The translations under genes and the position numbers were made by a program. A DNA stretch of 64,000 bases from Geosiphon pyriformis uo1 (taxonomy: Eukaryota > Fungi > Glomeromycota). This document shows positions 7,090-40,600 of this stretch, in pieces. The notes beneath the pieces are model-generated. The model was given only the letters and a program-made list of their open reading frames with translations. It was not told the DNA's origin and made no database searches. The stretch spans positions 452,459-516,458 of the forward strand of contig JAAOMT010000009.1 in the NCBI GenBank assembly GCA_016748015.1, given 5' to 3'. Position 1 is the first letter of the stretch. Each line of letters starts with the position of its first letter.

Positions 7090-7091
7090 TT

Positions 7092-7108: not shown

Positions 7109-7151
7109 TATAATCCTATAGAGAATCAGCACCAACAACAATCATCCAAAA

Positions 7152-13100: not shown

Positions 13101-13420
13101 AAAAAAAACCAGATGAAAGAGAACATCCAGTAGCATATGCCAGCTGAAGCTTGAGTCCAGCTGAAAAAAACTATGAAACACCAGCATTAGAACACTTAGC
13201 AATTTATTGAACAGTCATAAAATAAAAAGAATACTTGAGCCAAAAGTTTGAAATATATATGGATCACAAAAAATTGACTTCAATCCAGAAGCAAAAATTT
13301 GGAGACAATTGCTATACCAGATGAAAAATAGAACTTTCACTATTTAATTATACAGTACATTATAAAAAGGGAAAAAACAATGAAAATGCTGATGGATTGT
13401 CACAAATGAGACAAATCTAA
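7152..13420 (+). pseudogene. Element A polyprotein Gag-PR-Cys-rich domain-dUTPase-RT-RNase H
   Basis: CCHC knuckle CHYCDKQGHLRINC about 8910; protease LIL(N/D)SGS about 9610; dUTPase about 11196-11600; RT (PWSSP, VDYRKLN, MPFGL); RNase H ending NADGLS..RQI*. Confidence 0.9.
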
Positions 13421-13449
13421 AACATTTCAACCCAAAAATATAACAAAAG

Positions 13450-15669: not shown

Positions 15670-15723
15670 ACAACCAAAAAGTATATAAAAACACAGTACA
15701 TGCAACAAAAGCAACCAAAAAAA

Positions 15724-16358
15724 ATGGAAATACCAGATCATATTCACACTATAGCTTAACAATTGTTCTAGGCCTTAAGTTAACAACAGTTAGACATGGA
15801 AATTGTTATTAACAACCAAATAATTTGCTATTGAAACACCCAAAGAAAGACAAAGAATACACTATATCAGTGGCTGCCAAAGAATGATAAAAACTGGACA
15901 AATAATTTAATAAAAAAAGTGAAGAACACTTTTGGGAAAATACCTATAATGGCACCAACAGAAGAGCTTACAAAAAAAAATTAGAAGCAATGAACAGAAT
16001 GACTTCCAATATCATATTGCTACTACCAGTTAGGTCAAAAGTTGAATATTCAGGAATTGTATATCGACAAATCCAAGAGAATATTCAACCAAGACATAAT
16101 ACAACAAATTGAAGAATTTATCAGAAAAAAGACGAATTCAACACTACATGTTAAAACCATGTATTGACTACACAACATATTTTGGAACTATTCCAAAATA
16201 CTGTTACACTCTGACATGGAAACCATAACCATTAACCAATGGGGAAGAATAAACAATACACAAGTAGAAGACTGAAAAACAGAGTCAAACAAACAATACT
16301 TGAAAAAAAAGTATTAGAATTAATTCAAAACAAAGATTTCAACAGAGCTTAATATTAA
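15724..16358 (+). pseudogene. Element A third ORF (orphan, about 210 aa), diverged homologue of B/C ORF3
   Basis: Begins MEIPDHIHTIA.QLF, ends DFNRA.Y*, like ORF3 of B and C. Confidence 0.65.
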
Positions 16359-16372
16359 AAAAGAGGAGATAA

Positions 16373-17228
16373 TGTTACTTATAAAAAAAAACAGATATAG
16401 AAAAATAGTAGACCAATAAAAGAGTAGTAGTTAGCATGTGAGCACATTGCTTAGCAATGTAAAGCAATATCAGAAATCATGACACATTACTCAGCAATGT
16501 CAAGAAAATATGGCACATTGCTTAACAACATGAGCATTGCTTGAGAAATAATAGCACATTGCTCGAAAATGTGAGCAATCTTATAGAACCCAAATTATGT
16601 ATATATAGTGGTAGCATTAAAAGTAAAAAAGACAGACCTCTTAGTTTAGATTTCATCTAAGCAACCTTTCAATTCACAAATATCAATAAATAATTATTCT
16701 TTATCTCAAATCCACTCTCCAGTATCAACACTTCATGTTGATAATAATTAATACTTAACCATACTAGAACAATAGCTCTTGATCACGACTATTGATGAAA
16801 TACTAACTTGCAATTGCTTTTCTTTATTTTCTTTTATTTTCTTCTATTTCTTTGTTTTACTAATTGATTGAGAATTAAGCACTGAGTTATTGATATTAAG
16901 GATAGCTTGGTAAAAGACTCCAAAAGAAAGATATAGGATTTATATATATTAATAGATAGCTTACCAGAAGAGCATCTCTGCCAAATTACCAGCCACCACA
17001 CTGAGAAAGAAATTTGATGGAATTGCAATTTCGGGAGGCTACTGGAAAGACAACAATTGAATTTCTGTTCATTATACAAAGAACTCAACAACAAAACCTT
17101 CAGATAAATCACACTGTCAAATAATAACAATGTACCAATATTACCAATATTATCCACCAGATTAGTTACTGAGCATCAAGTTACAGGTTTGTTATTTAAT
17201 TTGAGACTCCAAATAATCACCTGTAACA
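16373..17228 (+). repeat. 3' LTR of element A, preceded by PPT AAAAAAGAGGAGATAA
   Basis: Direct repeat of 6223-7089. Confidence 0.95.
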
Positions 17229-19190
17229 ATGTCTAGCAGAATTATCAACCTTATAAAAGAACATATGATCTAATATCTCCATATTATCACAATACAAACA
17301 CAACACACTAGGATAATGTTTATTATAAAAGTGCTTCCAAATAACAACAGACAATTGATGATGCAAGGCCTTCATAAAATAAATGCATGTACTAACTGAG
17401 AGTCTGCTGGTAAAACCAACAGTCATGTGCAAATCAGGATGCCACACCAGTGACAAGTGGAGCCAATTGATCTCAGAAAGCAAACTATCTGTCAAAAACT
17501 TGGAACCAAAACCAACCTTCCAGTGTGTATGACAAATGAAATAATAAACATCATGTACAAAATATCTAAAATTGCCAGAAACAACACCACTATCAGCCAC
17601 TATAAAGCATTCATCCAAGCAAGGAAGAAGATGCCAACCAGAAAGAAAAGCAGCACCAACAATCATGTTAGCATGTTTATTCTCTGAGATGTCCAAGTGA
17701 CCCTTTACTTTGTGCCAACTAACCCTTAAATTCTTACTATAAATGACATTAACTATATGTTAACACTCAATCCAACACTAATTGCAAAAGTCAAAATACA
17801 CCAGACCCAATTCCGACTTACAAACATCCAAAGCAGATTGACTATCCAAAAACAAGCAAACAGAGCTAGACAAAGGAACACACTCTAGGGACAATGCAAT
17901 AGCCTGCAATTCTGTTATAGTGGAAGATATTAAACCTGATACACCAATGCTCAAACCCAAATTAATGTCTTTGAAAAAAGCAGCAGTACTAGCTTTACAG
18001 CCAATTGTGCTCAGATTTTTCAGAGACTTATCTGTATATACAAATAAACTACCAAAACCAATCTGAGAAAAATGGTTGCAAACAGACACAAAATCACCAG
18101 AGTTAAGAATGTTCAAAAGAACAATTTCACTTAAAATCAAAGAATAAGCAGAAAAAGAAGTTACACTATTGAAAAATTTTGCAGAAATTTTGAACCACTC
18201 AGGAACAGAGCCATAGAGGTCCAGTCTTTTCTATTGCCTAAAAGTACACCAATCAAAAACAGCAACATGACTATTACAAAGTTGACTCACAAAAACTATA
18301 TCATATCAATGGAGAGAAGAGAAAAACTTGAGAAATCTTGACTTGCCCAAAACAGCAAACATGGGAATCCCACTGTAAAACTAAAAAAACTGGCTAAAAA
18401 GCCACTCAGGGACAAATTGCAATCAAAAAAAACATGAATCATGCCTGTCAGAAAGTTATTAGAAACACTGACACAAATACGAATAGGAGAACTCAATAGA
18501 TGAACAGAGTGCCAACACAAAACTTGCAAGTTATAAGACCTGTGAGAAAACAAGCGACCCAAAACTCCATCAAAGTTTACAAAACTAACAAAAAAAGCAA
18601 TCTTACTTTCAGATTAAACTTATAAGAAAGATTTCAAACCATAAAAAGAAGGGTGATGAATTGTATTGCTAGAAAAATCAAGTAATAAACCAGATTTAAG
18701 CTTCAAACCCTTACAAATCAGAGCATTCTACTTGTTGCATACATCAACAAGAACAAAGCTGAACTGTATCCTATAGCTAACTATAAGATGGAGAACTGCC
18801 AACACTAAATACAAAAACTGTTTATTTAAGACAGTCTTTCTCAAAACCATATTAGTAAAAAAACAAATGTCTAAATGTGTCTTAGCCAAACTAGGCTTCG
18901 AAAGGTCCTTAGTTAAAAGAAAAATGCCCAAATACCAATAAAATTCACTTTTTTTGGCAATAAAGATTGGCAAGCCACTAATAGAAAGAGAAGGATTACT
19001 AATCTTACTATTGATAGGAATGACCACCATCTTGTTATTATTAATTGAAATGTCATTGATCTGAAAAAATTTACCAGCAACATTGAGAATATATTGAGTA
19101 GCACTCTAACTGCTACCAACCCAAATTGTATCATTGACAAATATGCCAGCAGCAAAAAAGAAAGAAAGTCCAGCCTAAGATTCAGTGCAA

Positions 19191-20083
19191 TATTATTCAT
19201 AGAATATAGAAAATATAGTATTATTAGTCAGTAGATATTAGCCAATCAGAGGTAGACGTAATAAATGTGGAATTTCAGAATTCCTCTCAGAGAAATTGCA
19301 GGATTCCAGGAATTTCAGAATTTCCCGACAAGGAATTACAGGATTCCAGAATTGCAGAATTCCTCTTATCAAGAATCGCAGAATTCCAAAAATCTCAGGA
19401 TTCTTGTCGCAAAGAATTGAGGAATTGAAGAATCTCAATTATGTATATATAGCAGTAGGATTAGAATCTGAAAAGACAGATCTCTTAGTTTAGATTTAAT
19501 CTAAGAAACATTCCAGTTCCCAATCATCAAATAAATAATTATTCTATATCTCAACCCACTCTTTACTATCAACACTTTATGTTGATAGTAATTGATACTT
19601 AATCATGCTGGAACAATAGCTCTTGATCACGACTATTGACGAGATACTAACATACCAAATTGCCTTGGCTTATTTTCTCTATTTTCTTTATTTTTTATTT
19701 TCTTTATTTTATTTTATTTTATTTTTTGATTTTGTTGTTGTATACTAATTGATTAAAAGATTAAGCACTGAGTTATTGACATCAAGAATAGCCTGGTAAA
19801 AGACCCAGAATTAAGAGTAGGATTTTATATATTATCAGATAGCTTACCAGAAGGGCATGACTGCCAGACTAAATTCAGCCACCATGCTGAGAAAGAAATT
19901 GGGAAAACTTTTGAAAAAATACATCTATTATTGATACTATTGAATCTCTGTCCATTATACAAAAGACTTCATCAAAAATCTTTAGATATAACCCTTGCAG
20001 AATCTCATCCATGGAAGTAGCTTTTGAACACCAAGTTATGAGTTTGTTATTTAATTCAACAGCAAAAATACTTACCTGTAACA
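19191..20083 (+). repeat. 5' LTR of element B
   Basis: Direct repeat of 36765-37657. Confidence 0.95.
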
Positions 20084-23000
20084 TTTGGTGCTCCCTGTGA
20101 GATATAATCTTACAGAGAACCAGCACCAACAAACACCATCCAAAAGTGGCAGAATCAGAAAATATAGGAGCAAACCATTTAGAATTTGCAAAATCCTTAT
20201 TTCAACACTATTGTCAATACTTGGGATTAAATCACAATCATATATCTGCCGAATCAGCCTTCAATTTCTACGTCAATGAAAAGATTTCTTTTTTATTAGG
20301 AACACTAGTGAATACTGAATCAGCAAGAGAAACTTTCTATAGGGAGTTAATTCAAAACACCAACCTACCAACAAATCATAATTTCACATCCATCATCACT
20401 GAGATCAACAAAGAAATTGAACACCACACTCAACAAAGATATCCAATTACATATGCTAGTAAAGGCAAGAGAAAACTACAAACACCAGCAGTAACACCCA
20501 GAAAAATACAGCCATCTACTTAGAAGAAAAACAGAATTGAATCCCCAAGCAACCTATCCTACCACTATACACTTGGAAGTGTCATCAACATATCATCAAC
20601 AGACATGTTTTCATCAATTATAACATCAATATTTGGACAATTCCTATTCCAAAGTAGACAGAGGAAAACAGAATTATTAGGACCATATGGCGAATACTTT
20701 GAGAGATTTAATTTATAATCATCAATCTCATCAAAACTTTGATCACCACCACCTTCACCAGATTTCAGAATCTCTGATCTGTGGAAAGAAGCAGAATTAG
20801 AAAAAGAGGAAGAAGAATCAGAGGATCAAGAATTCACTTACCAGCACCCGATCACTGAAAACTCGGAAGTTGAAACCCCGAATTTTCAAACTCAGCAAAA
20901 TCTAAATCTAGAAAACCCGGAAATTGAAACTCCGAATCATCAAAGGCAGAACAATCCAAACCCTGAATTAATTAATCAGCAAAACTTACCTCCAGTAATT
21001 GTCATCAATCAACTGCCAATTAATCCTATAGCCAAACCCATACAACAGCCACTTCAACTACCACCCCAACAACCAGTACAACAACAACTGCTTCAACAAC
21101 CACCAAACTTAGATCCAATGGCCTATGCACCAATCGCAAAACTTGACAACTTTACTGGTAAAGAGGATGATGCTCAAGTATGGCTGAATAATATAGAAAA
21201 GGCCATCACAGCCAACAGATGGAATGATGCCCAAGCAATGCAAACCATTCCCTACTTTCTCAAGAATACCGCTGATTCATGATATCAGAGCTTGGTTAAT
21301 AAACCACAAGATTTCAATGCCTTCAAAGTGGAATTCCTAAGATATTTCAGCAACAATAACAGCATTAATCGCCTAGTCAATACATTCACCACCATGAAAC
21401 AAAAAGAAACTGAAGCAGTCACCACTTATTTAGGATGCTTCCATCAAAATCTGCACCAAGTTCAAGCAATTAACGCCAATTATTTTACAGCCCCACAGAT
21501 ACTCAACCAGTTTATCTATGGCCTGCACAGTAACATCTTGTAACATGTATGTCCATTGCATCCAGGCACCTTTCAAGATGCAGTCACACATGCCAGAGAT
21601 TTTGAATCCGCTGAGTCAGAGGCTAACCACACCCAAGCTATTAATCTAGTAATGAATGGATCATCTGAATTGGATTCCAAATTGGAGAAGTTCAGTAAAT
21701 CAATTAATAAGAGATTGGAAGGATACTTAGCTGATAATCACGCCATTTATTAGCCTCCACAACGATGCAATAATCAAGGAAACTCTAATTGTGCCCAAAA
21801 TCAACCACGTCCATCTTCATCAACCAATCAACAGTGGCAATAGGAAACGCGTATCTGCCACTATTGTAGTAAACAAGGACATATCCAAATTGACTGTTGC
21901 TAGCGTTTAAATAACCAACGATCAGGAAATCAATATCGAAACCCCAATTGCTGGTTCCAAACTCTGAATCAGTACTCAAATCAAAACCAACCCACTTACC
22001 TACCAGTGATACAGTCATCAGTCTATCAATCTCTGGTGTATCAAGCTCCAATCTATCAACCGCAGCTACAAATAATTTATCAACAACCACAGCCACAAAT
22101 AATCTATCAATTCCAACAAATCCAAACACCACCCCAAAGCTTACCACCCAACGGAACCCAAAGACCAAAAATAATTCAACAGAGCTGGAGATCGGCGATA
22201 ATAGTCTATCAACTGATCCCCAGTTCTTTACAGCAACCATCTGGATTACGCCAGCGGAGTTCAGGTGCCGGTCAACCCCAAAACCCAAATTCCCAGAACT
22301 ATTTAAGTCTTCTGGTTATCTTAGAAGATGCCTCAACCAATAACCCAGCATTTGCCCAAAGACAACCAATTACCAGTAATATCCCACCTGCTACCATCAC
22401 TGAAGACGAGTCTTTGGCTGCTATATTCCCATTTGAATTCGAGGAAACGACTGCAACACCATTATTTAGTGGAGCTGCTCTTGAAGCCAAACCAATCACC
22501 ATGATGTATACTGATGCCAAAGTTGAGGGACAATCCATCAAATTGATCCTTGATAGCAGTTCAGCAGGCAGCATTATCACACGACAACTCATAGATCAAT
22601 TAAATTGCCGAGTTGATTGAACTGCCAGTGCCAGAATCATCACAGCCGATGGAGCGACCAAAACTCCAATTGGCGAAATCGACGACTTCCCTTTTGAAGT
22701 CAATGGCATCATGACTCTCATTAAAGTTCTCGTAATGGAAGCCAACCAATACCAAGCTCTTGTTGGTAATAACTGGCTATCCAAAGTCAACACGACGTTA
22801 GACTGGAACACCCAGGAACTCCAGCTAACATATCAGGGCTGACATATATGTGTACCAGCCATGTGTGGCCATTTCAAGACTCCTTTAAGAGAGAAACTAT
22901 TGATCGAACTGGAGAAAGAGAAAGAAAAACTTATCTGGGAAGCTTACCAAGTCTTCTGGGCCAACACCAATCACAATGAACTATCACTGATACTTTCATA

Positions 23001-23331
23001 AAATGACAACTTTAAGAGAAAACAAAAGGAGGAACTGACCTGGGAAACAGATGATTTGACCTGAACTGATAACGAACAAGAAGAACCATCGAGTTGGGAG
23101 TGGAAAGAAGAAAAAGGCAAAGGGAAAAAAAGGGAGGAAGAAAACACTCAAGCCAACAACACTTATATCCCATACACCTATGGTCAACAACAATCATTGA
23201 CCTATTGCTGACCCAAACTGATATGCATTGATTGTGACAAGAAATTGTCGTCAATGGGTGCATGCTGTGGTGACGATGAAGAATATCAGACGGCAACCAA
23301 GTTCTATTACCACGCATGTCATGTCAAATGT

Positions 23332-24092
23332 TGTTACTCATAGAAATATAGAAAATATATTAGCATAATTATTAGCCAATTAGAAGTAAATGTAGTAAAT
23401 GTGGAATTCCAGGATTCCTCTCAGGAATTACAGGATTCCAGGAATTTCAGGATTCCCTGACAAGGAATTACAGGATTTCAGAATTTCAGGATTCCTCTCA
23501 AAGGAATTGCAGGATTCCAGAATTAATACCACAGAATCCTTAGCCTAGAAACAAAAATCATCAAATAAATAATTATTCCATATCTCAATCCACTCTCTAC
23601 TATCAACACTTCATGTTGATAATAAGTAATACTTAACCACACTAGAACAATAGCTCTTGATCACAGCTATTGACGGGATACTAATCTGCAAATCGCCTTG
23701 GCTTATTTCTTTTCTTTCTTTATTTTTCTCTTATTTTTCTTTATTTTATTTTGATTTATTATTGTGCACTAACCCATTGATTGAAAAGCGCTGATTACTG
23801 ATATCAAGAATTGCCTGGTAAAAGACCTCTGCGAGAGGGTAGAACATGTACAGAAGATACGGATTACTTACCAGAGAATTGCCGGCCACCAAGCCGAGAA
23901 AAAAATTGACAGACTTGCGAATCTGAGAAGCTATGAATAAAACAACTATTGAATCTCTGTCCATTATACAAAGAACTCCATCAAAATCTTCAGATACAAT
24001 GCTTGCAAAACCTCATCAACAGAAGTAGCTTTATGAGCACCAAGTTATGGATTTGTTATTTACTTCAACAGCAGAAATAATCTCCTGTAACA
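23332..24092 (+). repeat. 5' LTR of element C (about 90-bp deletion removes TATA box)
   Basis: Aligns with 30782-31632 except the block containing TATGTATATATAG. Confidence 0.92.
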
Positions 24093-24151
24093 TTTGGTGC
24101 TCCCTGTGAGGTATAATTCTACAGAGAACCAGCACCAACCCAAATCTAAAT

Positions 24152-27100
24152 GTGGCAGAATTAGAAAATATAGGAGCAAACCATTTAGAATTCGTGAAAT
24201 CCTTGTTTCAACAATACAGCCAACAATTAGGATTAAACAGTAATTATTACCCAGCCGAATCAGCCTTCAACTTTTATGTCAACGACAGAATTACTGAATG
24301 CTTAGGAGGAACAGTTAACATTGAAGCAGCAAGAGAAAACTTTTACACAGAATTATTCCAACATACCAACTTACCAAGAAACTATAGTTTTGCACCAATA
24401 ATCAAAGAAATCAACCAGACTATTGAAAGATACACTCAATAACAATTTCCCATTACCTATGCAGACAAAGGTAAAGGAAGAATACAAACACCAGCAGCAA
24501 CACCAAAAGGAATACAGTTATCTAGTTGGAAGAAACACAGAGTAGAATCACCAACCGCTCTATCATATCACTACACACCTGGAAGCACCATCAACATCTC
24601 ATCAGTAGACGCATCCACCTCAAACGCAATATTAACAGTTGGAAGATTCCAGTTCCAAAGCAAACAATGGAAAGAAAATTTACTAGGGCCATACGGAGTG
24701 TATTTTGAAGGATTTAAATCACAATTACCAACTCCATCAGGAATTCGATCACTGCCGCTTCAACCGGACTTTGGAATCGCTACCCCATAAGAACTATTTA
24801 AAGAAAAAGAGGAAGAAGCATTAGAAGATCAAAAATTTACTTACCAAAACTCCAATTGGCAAAATTGATGACTTCTCTTTCGAAGTCAATGGTATTGTGA
24901 CTCCCATTAAAGTTCTAGTGATGGAAGCCACTCAATACCAAGCTCTCGTTGGTAATGACTGGCTATTCAAAGTTAACATAACGTTAGACTGGAACACCCA
25001 AGAACTCCAGCTAACATATCAGGGCCAACACATACGTGTACTAGCCACATGTGACCATTTCAAGACTCCTCCAAGAGAGAAACTATTGATTGAACTAGAG
25101 AAAGAGAAAGAGAAACCTACCTGGGAAGCATACCAAGTCTCGTGGGCCAACACTGACCACAATGAGCTGCCGCCAATACTCGCCTGAGACGACAATAACA
25201 ACGGAAAAGAGGAGCAAAGAAAAGAACCTACCTGTAAAACCACTATCGACGTTGGGACCAACAACAAAGACCACTACGAACTACCACCAGTATTATCATG
25301 AGATGACAACCCCAAAGGAAAGCAAAAAGAGAAACTTACCTGGGAAACCAATGATTTGACTTGGACTGATAATGAACAAAAAGAAGCCTCAAGTCAGGAA
25401 TGGAACGAAGATAAGGAAAAAGGAAAAGAAAAAGAAGAAAAAACGCCACCAATGATCAACAGTTATAATTCCTACACCCACCACACTCCACAACAATCCA
25501 ATTATCAACGGCCAAGGCTGGTATGCGTTGATTGCAGCAAAAAACTGTCATTAATGGGTGCATGCTGTGGTGACAATGAGAAATACCACACCGCAACAAA
25601 GTTTTACTGTTGTCCATGCTTACTCGAATGCTTTGGATGACAAAAGAGGCAAAAAAAATGGGATAACCAACTTTATTTCGCTTGTGGGGAGACCCTACTA
25701 GATAAAAGGATGTGAAACAACATCCCAGGATGTGGAGGAACATGTGACGTATCATGTCAATACACAATTTTAATAAGCGACTAGGTAAGGAAAGGAACTC
25801 CAATAGAAGCAGCCTAAAGAAGAGCCATGCAGTGACTGGACAGTTGTTCACATGACAACGACAAATTGTGGAGAATGGCAATTGCCAAAATAGAAGGAGT
25901 GACATCTGAAGAGATCAGAGAAATCAAAAACAACCCACCAGAACCCACTGAGCTTGACTGAAATGCAGAGCCAGCCATAAATTCTCTGGAACTCGAAGAG
26001 TTCCATGAACACTACCAAAACTTGACACCCACTAGAGAAGAGCAAGAACAATGGCTAGCACAGTTGAATACAAGACTGTGTCGCCATTGTTTAATTCACA
26101 GTGACTTTGAATATTGTGACAATTGTGACCTCCTTTACAATCCACTATCACGCATGATCTACTCGATTCCTGAAGAAGAAGAACCAATCAGCAGCTGTGC
26201 ATCGGAATTAGAATGCTGATCAATCGTAATCCAGACTCTGACGATAACAACAAAAACATCGGTTTTAGTTTCGTTTAAAATGGCAATGACAACAAAAACG
26301 ATTCCAACTCAGATTCAAACTCCAATTTAAACCATGAACAATACATTACACTACCAGATCTCTCCAAGGAACAAGAGTTGAAATGGTATAGTGACAATGG
26401 AGAGAGTATTATGCCAGAACATGTGCATAATACGGATGCAGGGTTTAATCTGAGATATTCAGGAAAAAATGCCATCAAATTGGAACTGCATTCATGCACC
26501 TGTATTGATCTGAAAATAGCACTAGAAATTCCGGCAACAACAATGGTTCAATTAACATCTAAGAGTAGTTTAGTGAAAAAAGGGATCAATATAAGAGGAG
26601 GAATAATTGACACAGGATATGTAGGAAATATCATCACTATGCTACAAAATAACTCAGAAAAGGCCTACATAATAGAGCCCCAATAAAAAGATAGCACAGG
26701 CAATATTCCTGTCTCTGGTTAGAATAGCTTAATTAGTATTAGTGGAAAACAGGGAAGAGTTAAGGATTATGGCTAAAAGAATACAAAGATTTGGATCAAC
26801 AAATAGAATAGATATACCAGTTAATATAACAGAGGAAGAAATTGTTGGCCAAAGAGAAATTATCTCAACCAGTCAAGTTATTTCCATTCCACCATATAGC
26901 CAGTATATGCTAACAATAGAAAGAAAAAAAAAGGAGCAAGGACAAATTTTTGAAGCTGAAGCAAACCTTTATGAATCAGGAGAGATTGGATTGATCAATC
27001 TCCACATACCAGCCAAAAGCTATAACAGCATAAAAATTCCCATCTACAACAACACTAGTAATGTCATTAACATACCAAAAAGAACCACCATCAGATATGT

Positions 27101-28637
27101 AACCACAGAAATAGAAAACCAACCACCAAATCCTATTCCAGACTTTCCACAACTTTGTGAATATGTTGACATTACATCACAAACAATCTATGGACGAGAT
27201 AAATGTTATTTGCTCCAACCAGAACAATTGGAACAAATGAACATGGGAAACTTAGATCCACTCCAATATATGCAGCTCAAGATATTACTCAACAATTTCA
27301 ATGACATCTTTGCCAGCGAAAATGAGTTTGGCCGAACTAACATTATCCAGCATCAGATCAAAATTGGAGATGCAATGCCAATCAAACAAAGAGCATACAG
27401 AATGCCACCAGCCAGCCATGAAATCATTTGTTAAGAGATAAACAGAATGCTTGACAATGGGCTAATTCAATTATCAATGAGCCCATGGTCATCACCAGTG
27501 GTACTCATCCATAAGAAGAATGGAAAAATCCAGTTTTGTGTAGACTACAGGAAACTCAATGGTGTAACTTATGGAGACAGTTATCCAACTCCATAAATAC
27601 AGGAATTATTCGACGCTTTCGGTGGGAACAAATGGTTCTCAACATTAGATTTGGACAGTGGTTATTAACAAGTAGCCATGAATCCAGCTGATAAAGAGAA
27701 AATAGCATTTACTACTAGAAAAGAGAATTTCAAATTTGAAATGATGTCATTTGGCTTAACCAATGCCTCAGCAACTTTTCAATGGCTAATGGAAATTGTT
27801 TATACTGGCTTATTATGGAAATCAGTAGTTGTATACTTGGACAACATTAATGTATTCTCAAAAACATTTGATAATCATCTTCATCATCTTCAACAAATGT
27901 TCAAAAGACTAAGAAGAGCAGGACTAAAGTTAAATGCAACAAAGTGCTTCTTTGGCAAGACAGAACTAAAATTCTTGGAACACATAGTCAGCAAAGATGG
28001 CATCAAAATGGATCTGGAGAAAATAGAGATAGTAAAAAACTTTCCAGTGCTGACCAATATAACAGAACTGAAATCATTCTTGGGATTTGCCAGCTACTAT
28101 TGACGTTTTATCAAGAACTTTTCCAAGATAGCGCAGCCACTCAACCAACTGCAAAACAAAGATACAAAATATGAATGGACCGAAAGTCAACAAGAAGCTT
28201 TTGATATTCTAAAAAGAAAGCTTATACAAGCTCCAGTATTGATCTATCCAGATTACAGCAAACCATTTATCATTACCATGGATACATCCAGCCAGGCATT
28301 AGGAGCAGTACTATCTCAAAGAGGACCAGACAGCAGAAAACATCCAGTGGTATATGCCAGCAGAGGTTTAACACCAGCCGAAAAGAACTATAGAACACCG
28401 GAAAAAGAACACTTAGCAATATACTGGTCAGTCATGAAATGGAAAGAATATTTGAGCCAGAAGTTTGAAGTATACACAGATCACAAGGGATTAACATCAC
28501 TCCAAAAAGAAGAATTTGGAGATAGAAGACAGTCAAGATGGAAAATAGCATTTGTACTATACAATTATACTATACATTACAAAAAAGAAAAAGACAACAG
28601 AAATGCGGACAGTTTATCACGAATGAGACAAATCTAA
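24152..28637 (+). pseudogene. Element C polyprotein (partial Gag/PR, Cys-rich, dUTPase, RT, RNase H)
   Basis: Homologous to B; junction at about 24850 skips the capsid and the N-terminal half of the protease. Confidence 0.88.
26411..26810 (+). pseudogene. dUTPase domain of element C
   Basis: Motif remnants AGFNL, KSS, GGIIDTGYVG, IAQ, RIQRFGST. Confidence 0.9.
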
Positions 28638-28700
28638 GAACATTTTAACCCAAAAATATAACAAAACCAGAACAATACCAACAGAAAAATACAACAAAAG

Positions 28701-30083
28701 ATGAACATACAAAAATATCAACAATTTCAACATTATATAAACACTCAACAGTTCAAGGAGAATTTATCTCAAACAGAACAAAAGAGTATCAAACAACAAT
28801 CAAAATATTTTATCACTCACCAAAATATACTTTATTGGAAAAATAGAAGGGATCCAGATCAACCAATCAGAGTAATTATGGAGCCAGAAAAAGAGACAAT
28901 ATTATTCAACATGCACTTAAATCCAACAGCAGGACATTTTCACAAAGAAGCAACCATGGAAAGAACCAGAAAGAGATACTATTGGCCATCAATGTACCCA
29001 GACATCATTCAATATGTTCAAAATTGTGATGCTTGTCAGCGAAGAGAAGGAACAAGACCCAGTGAATCATTAAAACCAATCAAAGTAGAACAACCATTTG
29101 ACCATATTGGAATTGATTTAGTCGGACTATTAACAATCACCAGCAGAGGAAACAGATACATAGTGGTAGCTATGGACTATCTTACTAAATGGCCAGAGGC
29201 AAAAGCAATTCAAAGAGTGGATGCAGAATCCGTTGCCGAATTCATTCATCAGGATTTGATTTGTTAACATGGATGTCCAAAAGAATTATTATCAGACCAA
29301 GGAACTCATTTTGTGAACCAAACATTAACAGAATTGAGCCAAAGATTCGGAATCAAGAGACCATTATCATCACCATACCATCCACAAACCAACGGATTAG
29401 TAGAAAGATTCAATAGAACACTGTGTGAAGCAATAGCTAAGCTCAGCCAAGAAAACCAGAATGATTGGAATTTGTTCATACCATCAGTATTATTTGCTTA
29501 TCGGACAATGAAACAAGATACTACACAAGCAACACCATTTGAATTAGTATATGGGAGAACAGTAACGTTACCAGTAGAAAAAGAAATTAATACATATTCA
29601 GCTGAACCAATAACAGAAGAAAATTTTCAAGAAACATTGCTGAGAAGAACATATGACTTAATGGAAACATTGGAAAACAAATGAAGAAGAGCAGCTGATA
29701 ATATTCAAAAGTTACAAGAAAAACAGAAAGAAAGACATAATAGTCAACTACCAGACAAACCAGTTGAATTCAAGATTGGAGACAAAGTATTACTACATTG
29801 TACCAAAGTGGAAAAACAATGGAGTGGAAAATTCGATCCCAAATAGGATGGACCATTTCACATAGAAAAAATTCTAGAAAATAGAGCTTACAAATTAAGA
29901 TTGGATAACAAAATTTTAACCAAAACAGCACATGGAGGTCGACTGAAGCCATATCATGATATCACACTACCATCTACCAGTAATATTTCACAATTAGAAG
30001 TACAGAGAATACTAGTCTGACCAGATGAGATTCCACGAGATCTGGAACCAATAGTTATTATTAACAACAACACATTAAATTGA
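28701..30083 (+). pseudogene. Element C integrase ORF (about 460 aa)
   Basis: HHCC, GIDLVG / SDQG / VERFN DDE core, DGPFHI GPF motif; no chromodomain seen. Confidence 0.92.
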
Positions 30084-30138
30084 TCAATCAAAAAGAATAT
30101 ATAAAGACATGGTAGACGTGACAGGAAATATCAGAAAA

Positions 30139-30768
30139 ATGGAAATTACAGACAATATTCACATACTAGCACACCAACTCTTTCAATTAATCCAACACCA
30201 GGAAATGGAGATTACAATCAACCAACAAACCATTCGATATCAAGATACTAGAAAGATATTACAACTTAGAATACCAAAAAAAAATGAAGATACAGTGAAC
30301 AAAATCATGGTGAAAGTAAAATTAGCAATAAAAGAATCAACAAAAAAGTCACTATATTAAGAGTTGACTAAAGAAACTTGGAATTGGTGGATACAACAAT
30401 TTCCAAGAAACTATTGTTATTTTTACTTGGGACAACACATAAATATCCAGAATTTATATACAGATAAAACAAAGTAATTATTCGACAAAAGAATACTACA
30501 ACAATTAGAACATTTTGTGGGAAAGAACAACTTATCCACACAAGCCCGAGCCATATACCAAATACACACAGCATTTCAAAATAAACCAGAAATATTGCTC
30601 AACAAAGCAATGGATATAGTCACCAATAATCAATTGGAAAAAATCACCAACACTCAATTTGAAGAAGTACAGACCCAAATAACACAAGTAATTCTTGAAA
30701 AAAAAATCCAGAAAATACTTCAAGAGGGGGAATTACATAAGTTGGATTTCAACAGAGTTCAATATTAA
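30139..30768 (+). pseudogene. Element C third ORF (orphan, about 210 aa)
   Basis: ORF-track pieces 30109-30360 and 30517-30768 are in one frame, broken only by CAA>TAA-type stops. Confidence 0.8.
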
Positions 30769-30781
30769 AAGAAGGGAATAA

Positions 30782-31632
30782 TGTTACTCATAGAAATATA
30801 GGAAATATATTAGCATAATTATTAGCCAATCAGAAGTAAGCGTAGTAAATGTGGAATTCCAGAATTCTTCTCAGGAATTACAGGATTCCAGAAATTTCAG
30901 AATTCTCTAACAAGGAATTACAGGATTCCAGAATTTCAGGATTCCTCTCAAAAAAATCACAGAATTCCAAGAATTCCAGGATTCCTGTCATAAAAAACCG
31001 AGGAATTGAGAAATCTCAATTATGTATATATAGCAGTAGTGTTAAAAACAGAAAAGACAGAATCAATACCACAGAATCCTTAGCCTAGAAACAAAAATCA
31101 TCAAATAAATAATTATTTCATATCTCAATCTACTCTTTACTATCAACACTTCATGTTGATAATAAGTGATACTTAACTACACTAGAACAATAGCTCTTAA
31201 TCACGGCTATTGATGGAATACTAATCTGCAAATTGCCTTGGCTTATTTCTTTTCTTTCTTTATTTTTCTCTTATTTTTCTTTATTTTATTTTGATTTATT
31301 ATTGTGCACTAACCCATTGATTGAAAAGTGCTGATTACTGACATCAAGGATTGCCTGATAAAAGACTCCTGCGAGAGGGTAAGACATGTACAGAAGATAC
31401 AGATTACTTACCAGAGGATTGCTGGCCACCAAGCCAAGAAAAGAATTGACAAACTTGCAAGTCTGGGAAGCTACAGATAAAACAACTATTGAATCTCTGT
31501 TTATTATACAAAAGACTCCATCAAAATCTTCAGATACAATGCTTGCAGAACCTCATCAATAGAAATAGCTTCACAAGCACCAAGTTATGGGTTTGTTATT
31601 TATTTCAACAGCAGAAATAATCCCCTGTAACA
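30782..31632 (+). repeat. 3' LTR of element C
   Basis: TGTTACTCATAG..CCTGTAACA. Confidence 0.93.
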
Positions 31633-32415
31633 ACATTTTGGAAGACCAAAACGAGTGGGAAAATGGGATAATACACTATGTATAGTCTGTGGAGAAACTC
31701 TCCTCAACGAAGAAATGTGGAATGACATTCCGGGGAGAGGAAGAATGTGCGACATGTCCTGCCAATACACAATCCTCATCAGCAACTGAATCAAGAAAGG
31801 AACACCCATTGAAGCTGCCTGGAGAAGAACTGTACAGCGATTGGACAGTTGTCCACACGATAATGATGAATTATGGTGGATGGCAATTGCCAAAATTGAA
31901 GGTGCATCACCAAAAGAAATCAGAACAATTAAAAACAACCCACCAGAACCCATCGAGCTTGACTGGAATGCAGAGCCAGTCATAAATTTTCTGGAACCAG
32001 AAAAGTTCTATGAACACTACCAAAACTTGGCACCCACTAGAGAAGAGCAAAAACAATGGTTAGCACAGTTAAATACAAGACTGTATTGCCAATGTTTAAT
32101 TCCCAGTGACTTTGAATATTGTGACAATTGTAACTTTATTTACAATCCACCACCATACATGATCTACACAATCCCTGAAGAAGAAGAACCAATCAGCAGC
32201 TGTGCATTAGAATCAAAATTGCTAATCAATCACAATCTAGACTCCGATGACAACAACAAAACACTGATTCCAGCTCCATTTAAAATGGCAATGACAACAA
32301 AAATGATTCAAACTCAGATTCAAACTCAGATTTAAACTATGAACAATACATTGCACTACCAGATCTCTCCAAAGAACAAGAATTGAAATAGTATAATGAC
32401 AATGGGAAAGGTATT

Positions 32416-32810
32416 ATGCCAGAACATGCACATGATACTGATGCAGGATTTGATCTGAGGTATCCAGAAAAAAAGGCCATCAAATTGGAACCACATTCAT
32501 GTACCTGTATTGATCTGAAAGTAGCACTAGAAATTTCGGCAACAACAATGGTTCAATTAGCATCTAGAAATAGTTTAGCAAAAAGAGGGATTAATATAAG
32601 AGGAGGAATAATTGACGCGGGATATATAGGAAATATCATCGTTATGCTATAAAATAACTCAGAAAAGACCTATGTAATAGAGCCCAACAAAAAGATAGCA
32701 CAGGCAATATTCCTGCCTCTGGTTAGAGTAGTTCAGTTAGTATCAGTAGGAAAGAGGGAGGAATTAGGAATAACAGCGAGAAGAATACAGGGATTCAGAT
32801 CAACGGGTAG
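32416..32810 (+). pseudogene. dUTPase domain of element B
   Basis: Five trimeric dUTPase motifs: AGFDL, SRNS(RSS), GIIDAGYIG, IAQ, RRIQGFRSTG. Confidence 0.92.
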
Positions 32811-34686
32811 AATAGATGTACCAGTTAATATGGCAGAGGAAGAAATTGTTGGCCAAGGAGAAATTATCTCAACCAGTCAAGCTATTTCCATTTCTTCATA
32901 TAACCAGTATATGCTAGCAATAGAAAGGAAGGAAAAAGACCAAGCACAAATTTTTGAAGCAGAAGTCAGTCTTTGTGAATTAGGAGAAGTTGGACTTATC
33001 AATCTCCACATACCAGCCAAAGATTACAGTCACATCAAAATTCCCATCTACAACAATACAGGAAATGTCATAGAAATACCAGCCGGAATCATTATTGGAT
33101 ACTTAAACACTAAAATGGAGGATCAACTACCAAACCCCATTCCAGACTTTTGACAACTTTGTGGATATGTCGATATCACATCACAAACAATATACAGATG
33201 AAGTAAATGTTATTTGCTCCAACCAGAACAATTGAAACAAATAAACATGGGAAACTTAGATTCACTTCAATATATGCAACTCAAGATGTTGCTCAACCAG
33301 TTCAATGACATCTTTGCCAGCGAAAATAAGTTTGGCTGAACCAACATTATCCAACATCAGATTAAGACTGGAGATGCAATGCCAATTAAACAAAGAGCAT
33401 ACAGAGTGCCACCAGTCAGCCACGAGATTATTTGTCAAAAGATAAACCAAATGCTTGACAATGGGCTAATTCAGCCATCAATAAACCCATGGTCATCACC
33501 AGTGATACTCGGCCATAAGAAGAATGGAAAGATCTGATTTTGTGTGGACTACAGAAAACTCAATAGGATAACTCGTGGAGACAGCTATCTAACTCCATGG
33601 ATACAGAAATTATTTAATGCTTTTGGCAGAAACAAATGGTTCTCAACATTAGACTTAGATAGTGGTTACTGGCAGGTAGCCATGGATCCAGCTGACAAAG
33701 AGAAGACAGCATTTACCACGAGAGAAGGGAATTTTGAATTTGAAGTAATGCCATTTAGTTTAACCAATGCACCAGCCACTTTCCAATGGCTAATGGAAAT
33801 CATTTATACTGGCTTATTGTGGAAATTAGTAGTTGTATACTTAGATGACACCAACGTATTTTCAAAAACATTTGATGATCATCTTCATCATCTTCAACAA
33901 GTGTTCGAAAGACTAAGAAAAGCAGGGCTAAAGTTAAATGCAACAAAGTGTTTCTTTGGCAAGACAGAGCTAAAATTCTTGGGACACATAGTTAGCAAAG
34001 ATGGCATCAAAACAGATCCAGAGAAAATAGAGATAGTAAAGAACTTTCCAGTACTAACCAATATGACAGAACTAAAATCATTCTTGGTATTCGCCAGCTA
34101 CTATCGACATTTTATCAAGAACTTTTTCAAAATAGCACAGCCACTCAACCAACTGCAAACCAAGAATACCAAATATGAATGGGCAGAAAGTCAACAAGAA
34201 GCTTTTGACATTTTGAAAAGAAAGCTCATTCAAGCTCCAGTACTGATTTATCCAGATCACAGCAAACCATTCATCATTACTACCAATGCATTCGGCCAAG
34301 CATTGGAAGCAGTATTATCTCAGAGAGAACCAGACAGCAGAGAACATCCAGTAGCATATGCCAGCAGAAGTTTAACACCAGCCGAAAAGAACTATAGAAC
34401 ACCAGAACAAGAACACTTAGCAATATACTGGGCAGTCATGAAATGGAAAAAATACTTGAGCCAGAAGTTTGAAGTATACACAGATCACAAGGGATTAACA
34501 TCACTCCAAAAAAAGAATTTGGAGATAGAAAATGGCACTCGCACTATACAATTATACTATACATTACAAAAAAAGAAAAAACAATGGAAATGTTGATGGT
34601 TTGTCACAAATGAGACAAATCTAAGAACATTTTAACACAAAAATATAACAAAACCAGAACAATACCAACGAAAAATATAACAAAAA

Positions 34687-36068
34687 ATGAACACACAAAA
34701 ATATCAACAACTGCAACATTATATAAACACTCAACAGTTCAAGGAGAATTTATCTCAAATGGAATGAAAGAGTATCAAACAACAATCAAAATATTTTATC
34801 ACTCACCAAAATATACTTTATCAAAAAAATAGAAAAATCCAAATCAACCAACCAGAGTAGTTACAGAACCAGAAAAAGAGACAATATTATTCAACATGCA
34901 CTTAAATCCAACAGCAGGACATTTTTACAAAGAAGCAACCATGAAAAGAACCAAAAAAAGATACTATTGGCCATCAATGTATCCAGACATCATCCAATAT
35001 GTTCAAAATTGTGATGCTTGTCAGCGAAGAGGAGGTATGAAACCCAGTGAACCATTAAGACCAATCAAAGTAGAACAACCATTCGACCATGTTGGAATTG
35101 ATCTAGTCAGACCATTAACAATCACCAGCAGAGAAAACAGGTACATAGCAGTCGCCATGGACTATCTCACTAAATGGCCAGAGACAAAAGCAATTCAAAG
35201 AGTGGATGCAGAATCTGTTGCCAAATTTGTTCATCAGGATTTGATCTGTTGACATAGATGTCCAAAAGAATTATTATCAGACCAAAGAATTCATTTTGTG
35301 AACAAAACATTAACAGAATTGAGCCAAAAATTCGGAATTAAGAGACCACTATCATCACCATACCATCCACAAACCAATGAATTAGTCAAAAAATTCAACA
35401 GAACATTGTGTGAAGCAATAGCTAAACTCAGCCAAGAAAACCAGAATGATTGGGATTTGTTGATACCATCAGTACTATTTGTTTATCAGACAATGAAGCA
35501 AGATACTATACAAGCAACACCATTTGAATTAGTATATGGTAGAACAGCAATACTACCAGTGGAAATAGAAGTCAGCACATACCCAACTAAACCAATAACA
35601 GAAGAGAATTTCAAAAATACATTGTTGAGAAAAACATATGACTTAATGGAAACATTAAAAAACAAATGACAAAGAACAGCTGATAACATACAAAAGTCAC
35701 AAGAGAAACAAAAAAAAAGACATAATAACCAACTACCAGATAAACCAGTTGAATTCAGGATTGGAGACAAAGTACTATTACATCGTACCAAAGTGGAAAA
35801 ACAATGGAGTGGAAAATTTGACCCCAAATGAGACAAATCATTTCACATAAAAGAAATTCTAGGAAATGGAGCTTACAAATTAAGATTGAATGACAAAATC
35901 TTGACCAAAGCAGCACATAGAGATTGACTGAAACCATACCACCATATAGCATCATCATCCACTAGTAATATTCCACAATTAGGAGTACAGAGAATACTAG
36001 TCCAACCAGATGAGATTTTATGAGATCTGGAACCAATCATTATCATTGACAACAACACGTCCAATTGA
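34687..36068 (+). pseudogene. Element B integrase ORF
   Basis: ATG 62 nt after polyprotein stop; HHCC and DDE motifs. Confidence 0.9.
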
Positions 36069-36121
36069 TTGACAAAAGAATATATAAGAACATGGTCGAC
36101 GTGACAGAAGAGAACAGAAAA

Positions 36122-36751
36122 ATGGAGATTACAGACAATATCCATTCACTAGCCCAACAAATTTTTCAATTAATCCAACATCAAGAGATGAAAATTACCA
36201 TCAATCAACAAACCATTTGGTACAAAAATACGGCAAAGATACTACAAAACAAAGCACAGAAAAGACTTGAAAATGTGGTTGACAAGATTATGACTAAGAT
36301 AAAATTGGCCATGAAAGAACAACAAATAGTCAGATTACACCAAGAACTTATCAGAAAAACTTGGACTTAGTGGATACAACAATTTCCAAGAAACTATTGT
36401 TATTTTTACTTAGGACAACACATAAATATCCAGAATCTATATATAGATAAAACAAAGCAATTATTTGACAAAAAAATACTACAACAATTAGAACATTTTG
36501 TGGGAAAGAACAACTTATCCACACAGGCTCGAGCTATATACCAAATACACACAGCATTTCAGGATCGACCAGAAATTCTACTCAACAAAGCAATGGATAC
36601 AGTTACCAGTAATCAATTGGAAAAAATCACCAATGCTCAATTTGAAAAATTACAGACTCAAATAACACAAGTAATTCTCGAAAATGAAATTTAGAAAATA
36701 CTTCAAGAGGAAGAATTAAATAAATTGGATTTCAACGGAGCTCAATATTAA
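36122..36751 (+). pseudogene. Element B third ORF (orphan)
   Basis: MEITDNIHSLAQQIFQL..DFNGAQY*, closely similar to ORF3 of C. Confidence 0.8.
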
Positions 36752-36764
36752 AAGGAGAGAATAA

Positions 36765-37657
36765 TATTACTTATAGAATATAAGAAATATAGTATTATTA
36801 GTCAGTAGATATCAGCCAATCAAAGGTAGACGTAGTAAATGTGGAATTCCAGAATTTCTCTCAGAGGAATTGCAAGATTCCAGAAATTTCAGAATTCTCT
36901 AACAAGGAATTCCAGAATTCCAGAATTCCAGAATTCCTCTCATTAGGAATCGCAGGATTCCAGGAATCTTAGGATTCTTGTTGCAAAGAATTAAGGAATT
37001 GAAGAATCTCAATTATGTATATATAGCAGTAGAATTAGAACCTGAAAAGACAAACCTCTCAGTTTAGATTTAATCTAAGAAACATTCTAGTTCCCAATCA
37101 TCAAATAAATAATTATTTCATATCTCAACTCACTTTCTACTATCAACACTCTATGTTGATAGTAATTGATACTTAACCACGCTGGAACAATAGCTCTTGA
37201 TTATGGTTATTGATGAGATACTAACATACCAAATTGCCTTGGCTTATTTTCTCTATTTTCTTTATTTTTTATTTTCTTTATTTTATTTTCTTTATTTTTT
37301 TGATTTTGTTGTTGTATACTAATTGATTAAAAAATTAAGCACTGAGTTATTGACATCAAGGATAGCCTGGTAAAAGACCCAGAAATAAGGGTAGGATTTT
37401 ATATATTATCAGATAGCTTACTAGAAGGGCATGACTGCCAGACTAAATCTGGTCATCACGCTAAAAAAAAAATTGGGAAAACTCTTGGAAAGATACATCT
37501 ATTATCAACACTATTAAATCTCTGTCTATTATACAAAGAACTCTATCAAAAACCTTCAGATATAACCCTTGCAGAATCTTATCTATGGAAGTAGCTTTTG
37601 AGCACCAAGTTATGGGTTTGTTATTTAATTCAACAGCAGAAATACTCACCTGTAACA
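36765..37657 (+). repeat. 3' LTR of element B
   Basis: Direct repeat of 19191-20083. Confidence 0.95.
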
Positions 37658-40600
37658 GCAACCACTTCTAGAAATAAAATGAGAATTCAACCTATATCCA
37701 CATACACTCTCTTGATGCTTGACTTTATACAATAGAGGATTATAAAATATGCATCACAGAAGAGAAGAAAATACCTCTCCTTAGTTCAGATTATTGTGTA
37801 CATAATAACCACTCATTAAACCAAAATCTGTCATAACTCAGTTGGTACAATCTCTATGAATACTACCAAAAAATTGAATGAATTTGCTGCACATTTTAAT
37901 CCTGACCATACTTTTCTTAAGATGCTTCCAGCAAACCAAATTGTATGCTTTTTGCATGTCTTGCAAAACTAATCATAGCTTTCAGTCTTTTTCTAAAGCA
38001 TTCTCAATAACTAAACCAATTGCAAAAATGAGAGACTAAGTTGTTATACTTTTCAAAACTGAAAAATTGTTCTTACAAAAAACATCAAAGATGCTACATG
38101 TTAAAGAAATCCTGTCAGAAAGAATTTTGGAAAGAATTTTATGAGTCATTTTAATTAAAGCAATAAAATGGGTATTTGTCAGAACACTTTCTCATTCATA
38201 TGGTTTGGGAATCATCGAAACTCAAGCCTCCTTCCAAGAGCTGGGCACTGATTCACTAGACAAACAAGAATTCAAAAACACTAAAAACATATTCAAGACT
38301 ACTTTATTACAATGCTTCTAAAGCTCATTCAATATATCCAAGAGACCAGCAGCTTTGCCATCAGGCAGATTAGAAACCACTTCAAACAATTCATTAAATT
38401 CAATTAAACTCATAATACCAGAAAAAGCTTCATCAAAAACATACTCCAAAGATTGATATTGACAACACCAGTTATTAGAGATATTATCTGTCACTTTACA
38501 CTTCCTAGTCCAACCCTCTATGATCACATCTACCTTAGACTTAACCAAATCAGATTCCAGGATTAGCTTATCATTAACTACCAGATAATCAAGTACCACT
38601 TTGTGAAATAGATGCTTCAGCACACTTCTGATCATATGACTTTTATTCACCTCAAAGCTTTTTATCTTTTTATTAATAGCAGACTCAATGTTTATCTTCT
38701 TAGCCCTCAGAGATTCAGCAAGCTTGGCAACATAATAAGATCTTCTAGCATCAAAAAGAGCAGAATGGATATGATCAAAGCCAGCACTAGAGTCTACTAC
38801 ATTCTAAATAACCAAAGTCTTAACATTGTCCAAAGAAATCTAGTATTTCATAAGAGAATCAAACTTCACACCACTCTTTTCACATGAGGCCTTAACAATC
38901 CTAGAAACCAAAAGCTCCAATTTGTAAAAACTCAGAGATTCCTTAGTAAAGATATCATCAAAGCCTTTAAACCATTTCTTCTTAAACACCTTATTAACCG
39001 AGATAATTATTATTTTGTGAATGATATCCCATATCACATCCAAATCTGAGAACCTTGCAAAGGTGGCAAATTCATTTGAGAACATTGCTGTATTGGCTGA
39101 TATGGCACCCTTAAAATTGTTCTATTTAGTTTCATTGGCACCCTTGAACTCGAACTTCCATCGATCCCTATTTGTCTACTTACAAAGAAAGTTTAATCGC
39201 ATATTCAAAAGTTCACTCAAACCCACAGATACAGAAACAGATTGGTAATCCATGTTAAAATGCTCACTGACTTCTAAAACATTATGATGCACTATCACAT
39301 TGATCAGATTCAGGAAAACAAGCACATAATCAATTGTTTTAATAACACTCCTAGAATTTGTCTAAGTAGACTTCTTTACAGTTGGGCTGCCAACCAAGAA
39401 ATTAACTAGCCCCAAATCAAGGCATTTTTTAAAGCTTACACACTTATGAGAGCCATTCTCATTAAAATCACCACCAAGAATGATGAAAAAAGATTTATTG
39501 ACAGTCTTTGCAATAAGAGAGTTGATATCACCAGCCTGAGAAAACTGAACTGCCAAAGAGGCACCAGTGTAAAGCCCCAAAATTAACACTGAAAATTTAT
39601 TCTTGAAAAGCAACTTAATAAATAGAAGCCAACTAGGCACTTCTAAAATCCTGTACACATGTCTCACTAAAGAAGAGTTTATGACAATCACAACACTAGC
39701 ATCTAGATAACCAGATTCCAAACCAAAAGTAAAGACCTGCACATTATCAAATTTGTTAACAATCCAGAGGCAAACCTTCTCTCTTAACTTTGATTCCATA
39801 AAAATAGAAACTAAATTGTTTTTGTCTTTATGCCAACAAATAACATTGTTCTGTTTTGTAGGATTGTTCAATCCTCTAATATTGCATGTAGTAATTTTTC
39901 AAACCAAATCACTTATTAGAAAAAAAAAACATTCAAGAACCCAAGCCAGCACACAACTGATCAAAACTAAACCAATTGAGGCTTTAAAAGCCACCAACTT
40001 GGACTTCAAACAGTCTACTTTAGTTGTCAAAATTCTTGAACTATTAAGGCCCAGAGCTGGAACAACAGAGGAAGATACAGACACTACCACAGAATCATTC
40101 AAAACCATATTTGAATTTAAATCTAAGTTGATGTTTATCAGGACAACCAGATGACCAGAAGAAGGAAAAAAGGCCAAAAACACCAATTCTATGCCACTAA
40201 TCTTACACACAATACCAGAAACTTAATCATTCAAGAGCTTTAAGAAATGTTCCAAAGAGGCCAAATAAGCACTTAAAGATGAATTATTGGTCAGGACAAA
40301 AGAAGAACTACCACCCAAACCCAAGGCACCAGAGGAAAAAGAACCAAAACCAAAACCAGAATCAAACTAAAAACCACCAGAAGAAGATACAAAAGAGACT
40401 ACTTGAGCCCATGACTTGCCACCAAAAGCAGCAAAGTGAGAGATAGGAACATTTTTCTTGGCATATAATCTGGCCAACTGAAAATGACTTATATCAAAAG
40501 CATTTCTTTTAAAGTTTTTAGAAGGAGCAGACACCAGAGTGTTAAAAGCATCACATTTCAAAGCTGAGTGTTCAAACTTCCTACACCTTTTACACCAAAC

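Follow-up and report, generated by a model that had tools for sequence, protein, structure and literature searches.

We analysed a window of 64,000 nucleotides from the fungus Geosiphon pyriformis uo1 (contig JAAOMT010000009.1, positions 452,459 to 516,458), in which three long terminal repeat (LTR) retrotransposons, here named elements A, B and C, share a coding layout that departs from canonical Ty3/Gypsy elements. Their integrase (IN) and a third open reading frame (ORF), ORF3, are separate reading frames behind a single frame for Gag, protease (PR), a domain X, dUTPase, reverse transcriptase (RT) and RNase H (RH). This module order had been proposed in a first-pass annotation of the window and is borne out by the order of the Pfam matches (capsid, protease, dUTPase, RT, RNase H and integrase with H2C2, rve and SH3; X and ORF3 were unmatched), by a TAA stop codon behind RNase H and by an ATG of the integrase's own. 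One continuous frame connects Gag to PR in A and X to dUTPase in C, and annotated gene models link PR to X and X to dUTPase. The annotation had counted three independent copies of the same layout within 19191-37657. The copies are indeed separate insertions with 4-bp target duplications, but B has lost the Gag core, and only A and B lie in that interval, C being located at 6223-17228.

Identical final RNase H codons and the TAA close the first frame in all three elements (A 34622-34624, B 28635-28637, C 13418-13420). From this stop to the integrase ATG there are 62 nt in A (spacer 34625-34686), 63 nt in B (28638-28700) and 29 nt in C (integrase from 13450), the difference between A/B and C being a 33-nt tandem duplication. 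The B spacer, which carries this duplication, is A-rich, unstructured and free of ATG, and contains a second in-frame TAA. Between the integrase stop and ORF3 lie 23 nt (A) or 25 nt (B), and ORF3 extends to the polypurine tract (PPT). A 151-nt stretch across the RH-IN junction was compared with 1272 contigs of sequencing run X1, which represent many genomic copies; X1 possibly stems from the same source as the window and thus provides other copies, not a second organism. Runs X2 and X3 yielded 2 and 0 matching contigs. The X1 contigs showed 14 variant rows of at least 1%, none of them in the TAA at 28635-28637 or in the second TAA, indicating that the RH stop is fixed and not a product of decay. 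The G of the integrase ATG was variant in 8% of the depth. As a control, the stop private to B at 30018-19 was contradicted by 88% and 98% of the depth (40 of 211 variant rows listed).

The ratio of nonsynonymous to synonymous change (Ka/Ks) between the copies was 0.19 and 0.35 for ORF3, 0.16-0.18 for X, 0.30 for the integrase and 0.16-0.18 for RT-RH, compared to 0.44-1.44 in shifted frames. All frames were thus under selection, and ORF3 and X, which the annotation had listed as modules, are real ones with past purifying selection. The break between RNase H and integrase stands as well: we found neither a continuous RH-IN frame nor an absence of ORF3.

The split also occurs in relatives. A protein search with the integrase was restricted to 253-805 residues and cannot rule out fused forms, which were tested on DNA loci. 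The best 120 of 1664 matches had 392-451 residues, five of them being named Rhizophagus irregularis, a fungus with annotated multi-copy, full-length stand-alone integrases. An initial methionine stands in the same column as that of copy B in 30 of 33 aligned integrases. We kept 80 of 558 DNA loci from 6 of the 64 parts of a metagenomic collection, and 41 of these 80 contained both the RNase H end and the integrase. All nine loci with an integrase identity of at least 40% were split, with matched domains free of stops. Among the 32 more distant loci 22 were fused and ten broken; two of the latter were clean (L026 and L032) and eight carried stops or frameshifts inside the integrase region. The gaps between RNase H and integrase in 12 relatives were -8, 30, 62, 63, 74, 82, 89, 107, 110, 163, 365 and 727 nt, with frame offsets of 0 (2 loci), +1 (4) and +2 (6). 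Judged from these comparisons, the split is not special to the A/B/C family and is common to a wider group including the Rhizophagus integrases. The first-pass view of a distinct lineage therefore holds for the conserved, selected break, but not for its restriction to this family.

The integrase tree (FastTree) placed A and B in a group of 16 rows (support 95) together with nine split loci, the five Rhizophagus proteins and no fused row. An RT-RH tree (LG+G4) of 27 rows, from which L032, five unclear rows and four fused rows (mostly near-duplicates) were omitted, placed the 13 split rows on one side with a support of 96. Under a mixture model, RT-RH gave three changes with 37 or 28 rows; the 13 split rows stood together in 32% of the bootstrap trees and were not rejected as a group (p-AU 0.43). 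The trees hold no named reference elements. A single origin of the split appears plausible, and L032 may be separate from the other split rows.

A separate integrase requires a non-standard expression route, in agreement with the first-pass claim of an own expression strategy. Read-through or frameshifting is ruled out as a general rule because the frames of the relatives are mixed, and a single recoding signal because the offsets 0, +1 and +2 all occur. Nor can ribosomes arrive by leaky scanning from the cap, as they would have to pass 43 ATGs within the initial 3.2 kb of the A ORF1. The routes left are termination followed by restart, or separate mRNAs. To the first, in which ribosomes terminate behind RNase H and resume at the following ATG, 30-60 nt further on, we would assign an even chance. 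A single genomic RNA starting in the 5' LTR would then yield an ORF1 polyprotein of ~2070 residues, to be cut by the protease, and a small fraction of the ribosomes would move on through the short, A-rich spacer, which lacks ATG, and resume translation, a route that has been proposed for ORF2 of LINE-1. Such a restart would keep the integrase scarce, whereas Gag and RT would be made 1:1. Without a fusion to Gag, the free integrase would depend on binding to RNA, Gag or the cDNA itself for its delivery to the cDNA. The dUTPase would prevent the incorporation of uracil into the cDNA, the established role of this enzyme family.

Several features favour a restart. Stop and start overlap at the RH-IN junction of L022 and at the IN-ORF3 junction of L006, and among the ten non-overlapping RH-IN spacers seven have no ATG and five no YAG splice acceptor. 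No stable structure was detected before the integrase ATG in 14 junctions (z -1.5 to 1.0). A purine is present at -3 of 12 of the 14 integrase starts, a good context which fits ordinary initiation as well. Other observations weigh against the restart. The spacers of L008 (365 nt, 7 ATGs) and L018 (727 nt, 12 ATGs) would be hard to scan across, and two consecutive restarts would yield very little ORF3. UGGGA, the 18S-pairing motif of TURBS, occurs upstream of one of 14 RH stops, and the 100 nt preceding the stop of A, B and C lack it. In viral stop-restart of the TURBS type, no more than ~20-30 nt may separate the stop from the start (parts of PMC10275272), a spacing found in one of 12 relatives and at most in C among the three copies; with spacers of 29-63 nt and no UGGGA in A, B and C this type was rejected.

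Alternatively, integrase and ORF3 could have mRNAs of their own, either spliced from the LTR leader or initiated at internal promoters, with the 3' end in the 3' LTR; we regard this as a serious possibility although a less than even one. The long, ATG-rich spacers of L008 and L018 favour this route in at least some members, as do TATA-like boxes, which also count against a restart and are confined to long spacers: two of ten between RNase H and integrase (the two longest) and four of ten between integrase and ORF3 (all four of at least 94 nt). A match to a branch point plus CAG precedes the ATG in the spacers of A and B, again a point against restart, and the LTR leader contains GTAATT, a T-rich tract and ACTAAT. 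Precedents are the foamy-virus Pol (parts of PMC7828637) and ORF3s of other retrotransposons (parts of PMC5408684). However, YAG is missing from five of ten spacers, the C spacer has no CAG, and none of the A, B and C spacers has a TATA-like box; such words are frequent in AT-rich DNA, and the counts given here are without shuffle control. The overlaps in L022 and L006 and spacers mostly below 120 nt suggest coupling instead. Both restart and separate mRNAs may be used within the group, and ORF3 may well have its own mRNA.

The motif words of the leader lie at 19588-19760 in A, where GTAATT, the long T-rich tract and ACTAAT could represent a 5' UTR intron; the donor-like GTAATT is lost in both LTRs of B.

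It is very improbable that the integrase is made as a Pol fusion by read-through or frameshifting, i.e. as a low-level canonical polyprotein. The 63-nt spacer of B is in frame, and the short form would be 30 nt if a 1-nt gap in C is due to decay, but A and B have two in-frame TAA, the relatives show three frame offsets and lengths of -8 to 727 nt, and the initiator methionine is conserved. Least probable, and largely refuted, is the explanation that a non-autonomous family, copied by a helper, has inherited the stop as a defect, with ORF3 as a relic: every copy is decayed, and B either spread with a large deletion or acquired it in decay, but integrase and ORF3 are under purifying selection between the copies, stop-free domains flank the break in nine of nine close relatives, and the Rhizophagus integrases are full-length and multi-copy.

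Further observations concern the relatives. L018, whose terminal repeats are 96% alike, is close to a complete element, and a single in-frame stop separates its PR from its RT. ORF1 extends 180-580 residues past RNase H in L002 (2-541), L005 (3506-4438) and L018 (4954-6702), and a Cys/His/Trp-rich domain with zero Pfam matches is common to the extensions of L002 and L005 (47% over 80 residues, E 1e-20). Directly 5' of the integrase ATG both loci also have a common 40-nt motif (L002:580-627, L005:4455-4504) with the same small hairpin, whose paired bases differ and whose folding energy was within the range of shuffles. In L013 (1-1440) the Gag N-terminus consists of many Cys-rich repeats, and Gag and Pol are in different frames. 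P0542 (cluster of P0115), an integrase of the group, is filed in an Acidobacteria metagenome bin, probably as fungal DNA therein. Viral contigs gave only weak integrase-like matches, and Rfam gave 0 matches in six loci.

The window ORF3 comprises 219 codons, with an identity of 78% between A and B and 39% between A and C. The maximal hydropathy over 19 residues was 0.27-0.41 in the ORF3 of A, B and P0121, without a membrane-spanning stretch, so that the predicted protein is not Env-like and the retrovirus-like lineage suggested by the first-pass annotation is unsupported. Pfam gave zero matches at curated cut-offs, and all 114 protein matches of the window ORF3 are named Geosiphon pyriformis. 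By sequence the "orphan ORF3" of that annotation thus deserves its name, although a large family of ORF3s occupies the same position in relatives. An ORF of 120-280 residues with a common core follows the integrase in 11 related loci (gap -4 to 150 nt); it was not seen in four close loci with enough downstream DNA (L014, L020, L026, L032). The profile of the relatives' ORF3 matches 504 clusters, and six of ten longer family members checked are named Glomeromycota. In P0385/P0399, a Gigaspora gene model contains two ORF3-family domains and an R. irregularis model fuses an integrase piece to one.

The structure model of the relatives' ORF3 is all-helical (pLDDT 96). Foldseek at E 0.001 matched nothing in the PDB and among viral models; the best VIA Z was 5.2, which demonstrates neither a new nor a known fold. 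For the window type the model reached a pLDDT of 39.9 (alignment of 11 near-identical rows). The ESM atlas contained no usable match for either. The window ORF3 is somewhat more likely than not homologous to the 504-cluster family (unnamed; A2/A6), since both are alike in position, a YxLG-like motif, a C-terminal helix and the helical pattern; the direct comparison was weak (hhalign E 0.15 and 0.034, probability <2%), and so was the margin of the best HMM score (10.2 bits versus 8.1 for shuffles).

ORF3 is likely a small soluble regulator that binds nucleic acid. Our tentative first guess is an action on the repeats in its own LTR, and a more doubtful second one a partnership with the free integrase. 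In favour, ORF3 (39% versus ~72% for RT-RH) and U3 (67% versus 80% for R-U5) both diverge most in C. Against these assignments, the joint divergence could stem from recombination at the 3' end, and with Pfam, atlas and fold searches empty a function of ORF3 has no basis in homology. The most far-reaching version, a widespread fungal LTR lineage making three proteins from one RNA by two stop-restarts, with a conserved, helical ORF3 of an as yet unsolved fold that promotes reinitiation or carries the integrase to particle or cDNA, we consider improbable.

X is a Cys/Trp-rich domain of ~230 residues with several CxxC-type motifs and is likely a metal-binding accessory domain. Zero Pfam matches were obtained at curated cut-offs, the lone PDB row (E 0.053) was rejected, no likeness to the post-RH extension of L002 and L005 was found, and all 118 protein matches are named Geosiphon pyriformis. 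The dUTPase resembles trimeric enzymes of solved structure (best E 1.4e-11), and all five motifs of the trimeric type are recognisable. X and dUTPase look like gains of the A/B/C family because no match to either turned up among the 80 metagenomic loci, whether split or fused; of the split ones, only five span PR to RT. The dUTPase had been listed as an unusual module; its position between PR and RT is, however, known from fungal Gypsy elements, namely PosPlaTy3-5 of Postia, elements of Phanerochaete and Tmt1 of Tuber (parts of PMC2864245 and PMC6431247). These are described among chromodomain-bearing elements, in contrast to A, B and C: the integrase of B ends ~40 residues past the SH3 module and gave no chromo match at E 0.05, and membership in the chromoviruses was rejected.

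In other respects A, B and C work like Ty3/Gypsy elements (Metaviridae), with TG..CA LTRs, a primer-binding site (PBS) after the 5' LTR, a PPT before the 3' LTR, a target duplication and the order PR-RT-RH-IN. The best match of RT-RH among solved structures is the Ty3 enzyme (E 1.6e-75 and 5.3e-75), retroviral chains reaching 9e-28 or weaker. The new part is the stand-alone integrase together with the conserved ORF3. In Ty3/Gypsy the integrase is usually the last part of pol (parts of PMC3248453), whereas A, B and C, unlike canonical elements such as yeast Ty3, encode it in an own ORF (fixed TAA, own ATG) and possess X, dUTPase and ORF3 in addition. Env-bearing Gypsy retroviruses were rejected, as ORF3 has neither a membrane-spanning segment nor a Pfam match. 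Ginger-type integrase-only DNA transposons and Gmr1-like elements, in which the integrase lacks an upstream RT-RH or precedes the RT, were also rejected, RT-RH lying upstream of the integrase within the LTRs of A, B, C and L018.

Two long ORFs per RNA are also found in LINE-1, SART1 and the hypovirus CHV1, systems with known or proposed stop-restart. The LINE-1 spacer, for which reinitiation was proposed (parts of PMC5972666), has 63 nt like that of copy B, a length that fits a mechanism of the LINE-1 type. These are non-LTR elements or RNA viruses, however, with the break between ORF1 and the RT ORF instead of between RNase H and integrase. In foamy viruses, too, an enzyme made apart from Gag needs another packaging route (parts of PMC7828637), but in their case all of Pol is set apart and translated from a spliced mRNA, and Env is present. 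A third, non-Env ORF between integrase and 3' LTR is known from LTR retrotransposons of bdelloid rotifers and plants (parts of PMC5408684); those encode esterases, exonucleases or membrane proteins, whereas the window ORF3 matches no family. In titles and abstract openings of the literature we found no Gypsy lineage with the integrase in an own ORF, in line with the first-pass statement that the layout was undescribed; the transposable-element libraries of PMC11952901 and PMC3248453 may contain such elements.

Four insertions were resolved in the window (A, B, C and a solo LTR), all with a 4-bp target duplication. Features lie on the (+) strand unless stated otherwise. Element A (19191-37657) was delimited by self-comparison and flank inspection and hosts the nested element B; without B it measures ~10.2 kb, its first frame being ~6.2 kb. 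The 5' LTR (19191-20083, 893 bp, target duplication GCAA) has a TATA-like box at 19440 and AATAAA at ~19531, which would imply a long U5 of ~520 nt. The PBS (20086-20103) begins with TGG 2 nt past the LTR. Part 1 of ORF1 (20101-23331, putative start codon) covers the Gag N-terminal region, capsid (~21127-21618), a CCHC knuckle (~21856-21897), protease (22513-22782) and the start of X. Part 2 (31637-34624) holds the remaining X, dUTPase (32413-32805), a linker, RT (33517-33993), RNase H and the TAA. The integrase ORF (34687-36068) has its own ATG and decay frameshifts close to the start, and is followed by ORF3 (36092-36751), the PPT (36750-36761), which overlaps the ORF3 stop, and the 3' LTR (36765-37657).

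Element B (23332-31632) is inserted in the X domain of A (target duplication ATGT/ACAT), with LTRs at 23332-24092 and 30782-31632. Its ORF1 remnant (24093-28637) retains the Gag N-terminus, X (25503-26190), dUTPase (~26408-26810), RT (27507-27977), RNase H and the TAA. The Gag core with the capsid, the zinc knuckle and the first half of PR are missing due to a deletion near 24850, so only A and C hold every module. The B integrase (28701-30083) with its own ATG, HHCC, D-D-E and GPF/SH3 is followed by ORF3 (30109-30768). Element C has the same module order as A and B, LTRs at 6223-7089 and 16373-17228, and a diverged ORF3 from ~15700. A solo LTR of A/B type (14304-15136, target duplication ACAG) lies in its integrase.

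The LTR termini read TGTTAC...GTAACA, with decay to TATTA in A and in the solo LTR, and the LTR pairs are identical to 90.6% (A), 92.5% (B) and 89.5% (C). RT-RH identity is 83% between A and B and 72-73% of these to C. All copies are decayed, e.g. with 14 stops per 1100 codons in the Gag-PR frame of A. A Gag start inside U5 was considered and dropped, since the indels that distinguish the LTR subfamilies are not multiples of three and the gene models are spread over all three frames. For the Gag-like ORFs with which L001 and L005 end, an assembly reading through a collapsed LTR is the better explanation. Short tandem repeats occur in U3 or behind ORF3, each subfamily having its own array (window 19269-19423 and 6287-6449; L001:2730-2897; L018:9214-9415); the repeats of C and its ORF3 are both the most unlike those of A and B.

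Outside the elements, four related decayed repeats (532-4419 (+), 17217-19227 (-), 37659-40906 (-) and 59619-64000 (+)) look like LINE-type elements; Pfam matched nothing in the five pieces tried. Such a repeat flanks A on both sides, A being apparently inserted into it. Two intact exons at 56356-58054 (+) belong to a UDPGP-family nucleotidyltransferase gene (Pfam PF01704), presumably the host UDP-GlcNAc pyrophosphorylase.

The G. pyriformis genome was reported to contain 41% LTR sequence (parts of PMC11952901). In this organism ORF3 and X are each represented by more than 100 gene models, which are pieces of the A/B/C family element, and integrases of the split group are filed as DDE transposases. 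The group can be tested in R. irregularis, which offers many full-length stand-alone integrases and Gypsy elements that are expressed and recently expanded (parts of 10.1101/2021.03.30.436303). LTR elements usually package their integrase through a Gag-Pol fusion; the split group must control its amount and its delivery to the cDNA otherwise, and adds a natural eukaryotic case of polycistronic expression. If two restarts and a helper function of ORF3 held true, it would represent an LTR element delivering its integrase in trans.

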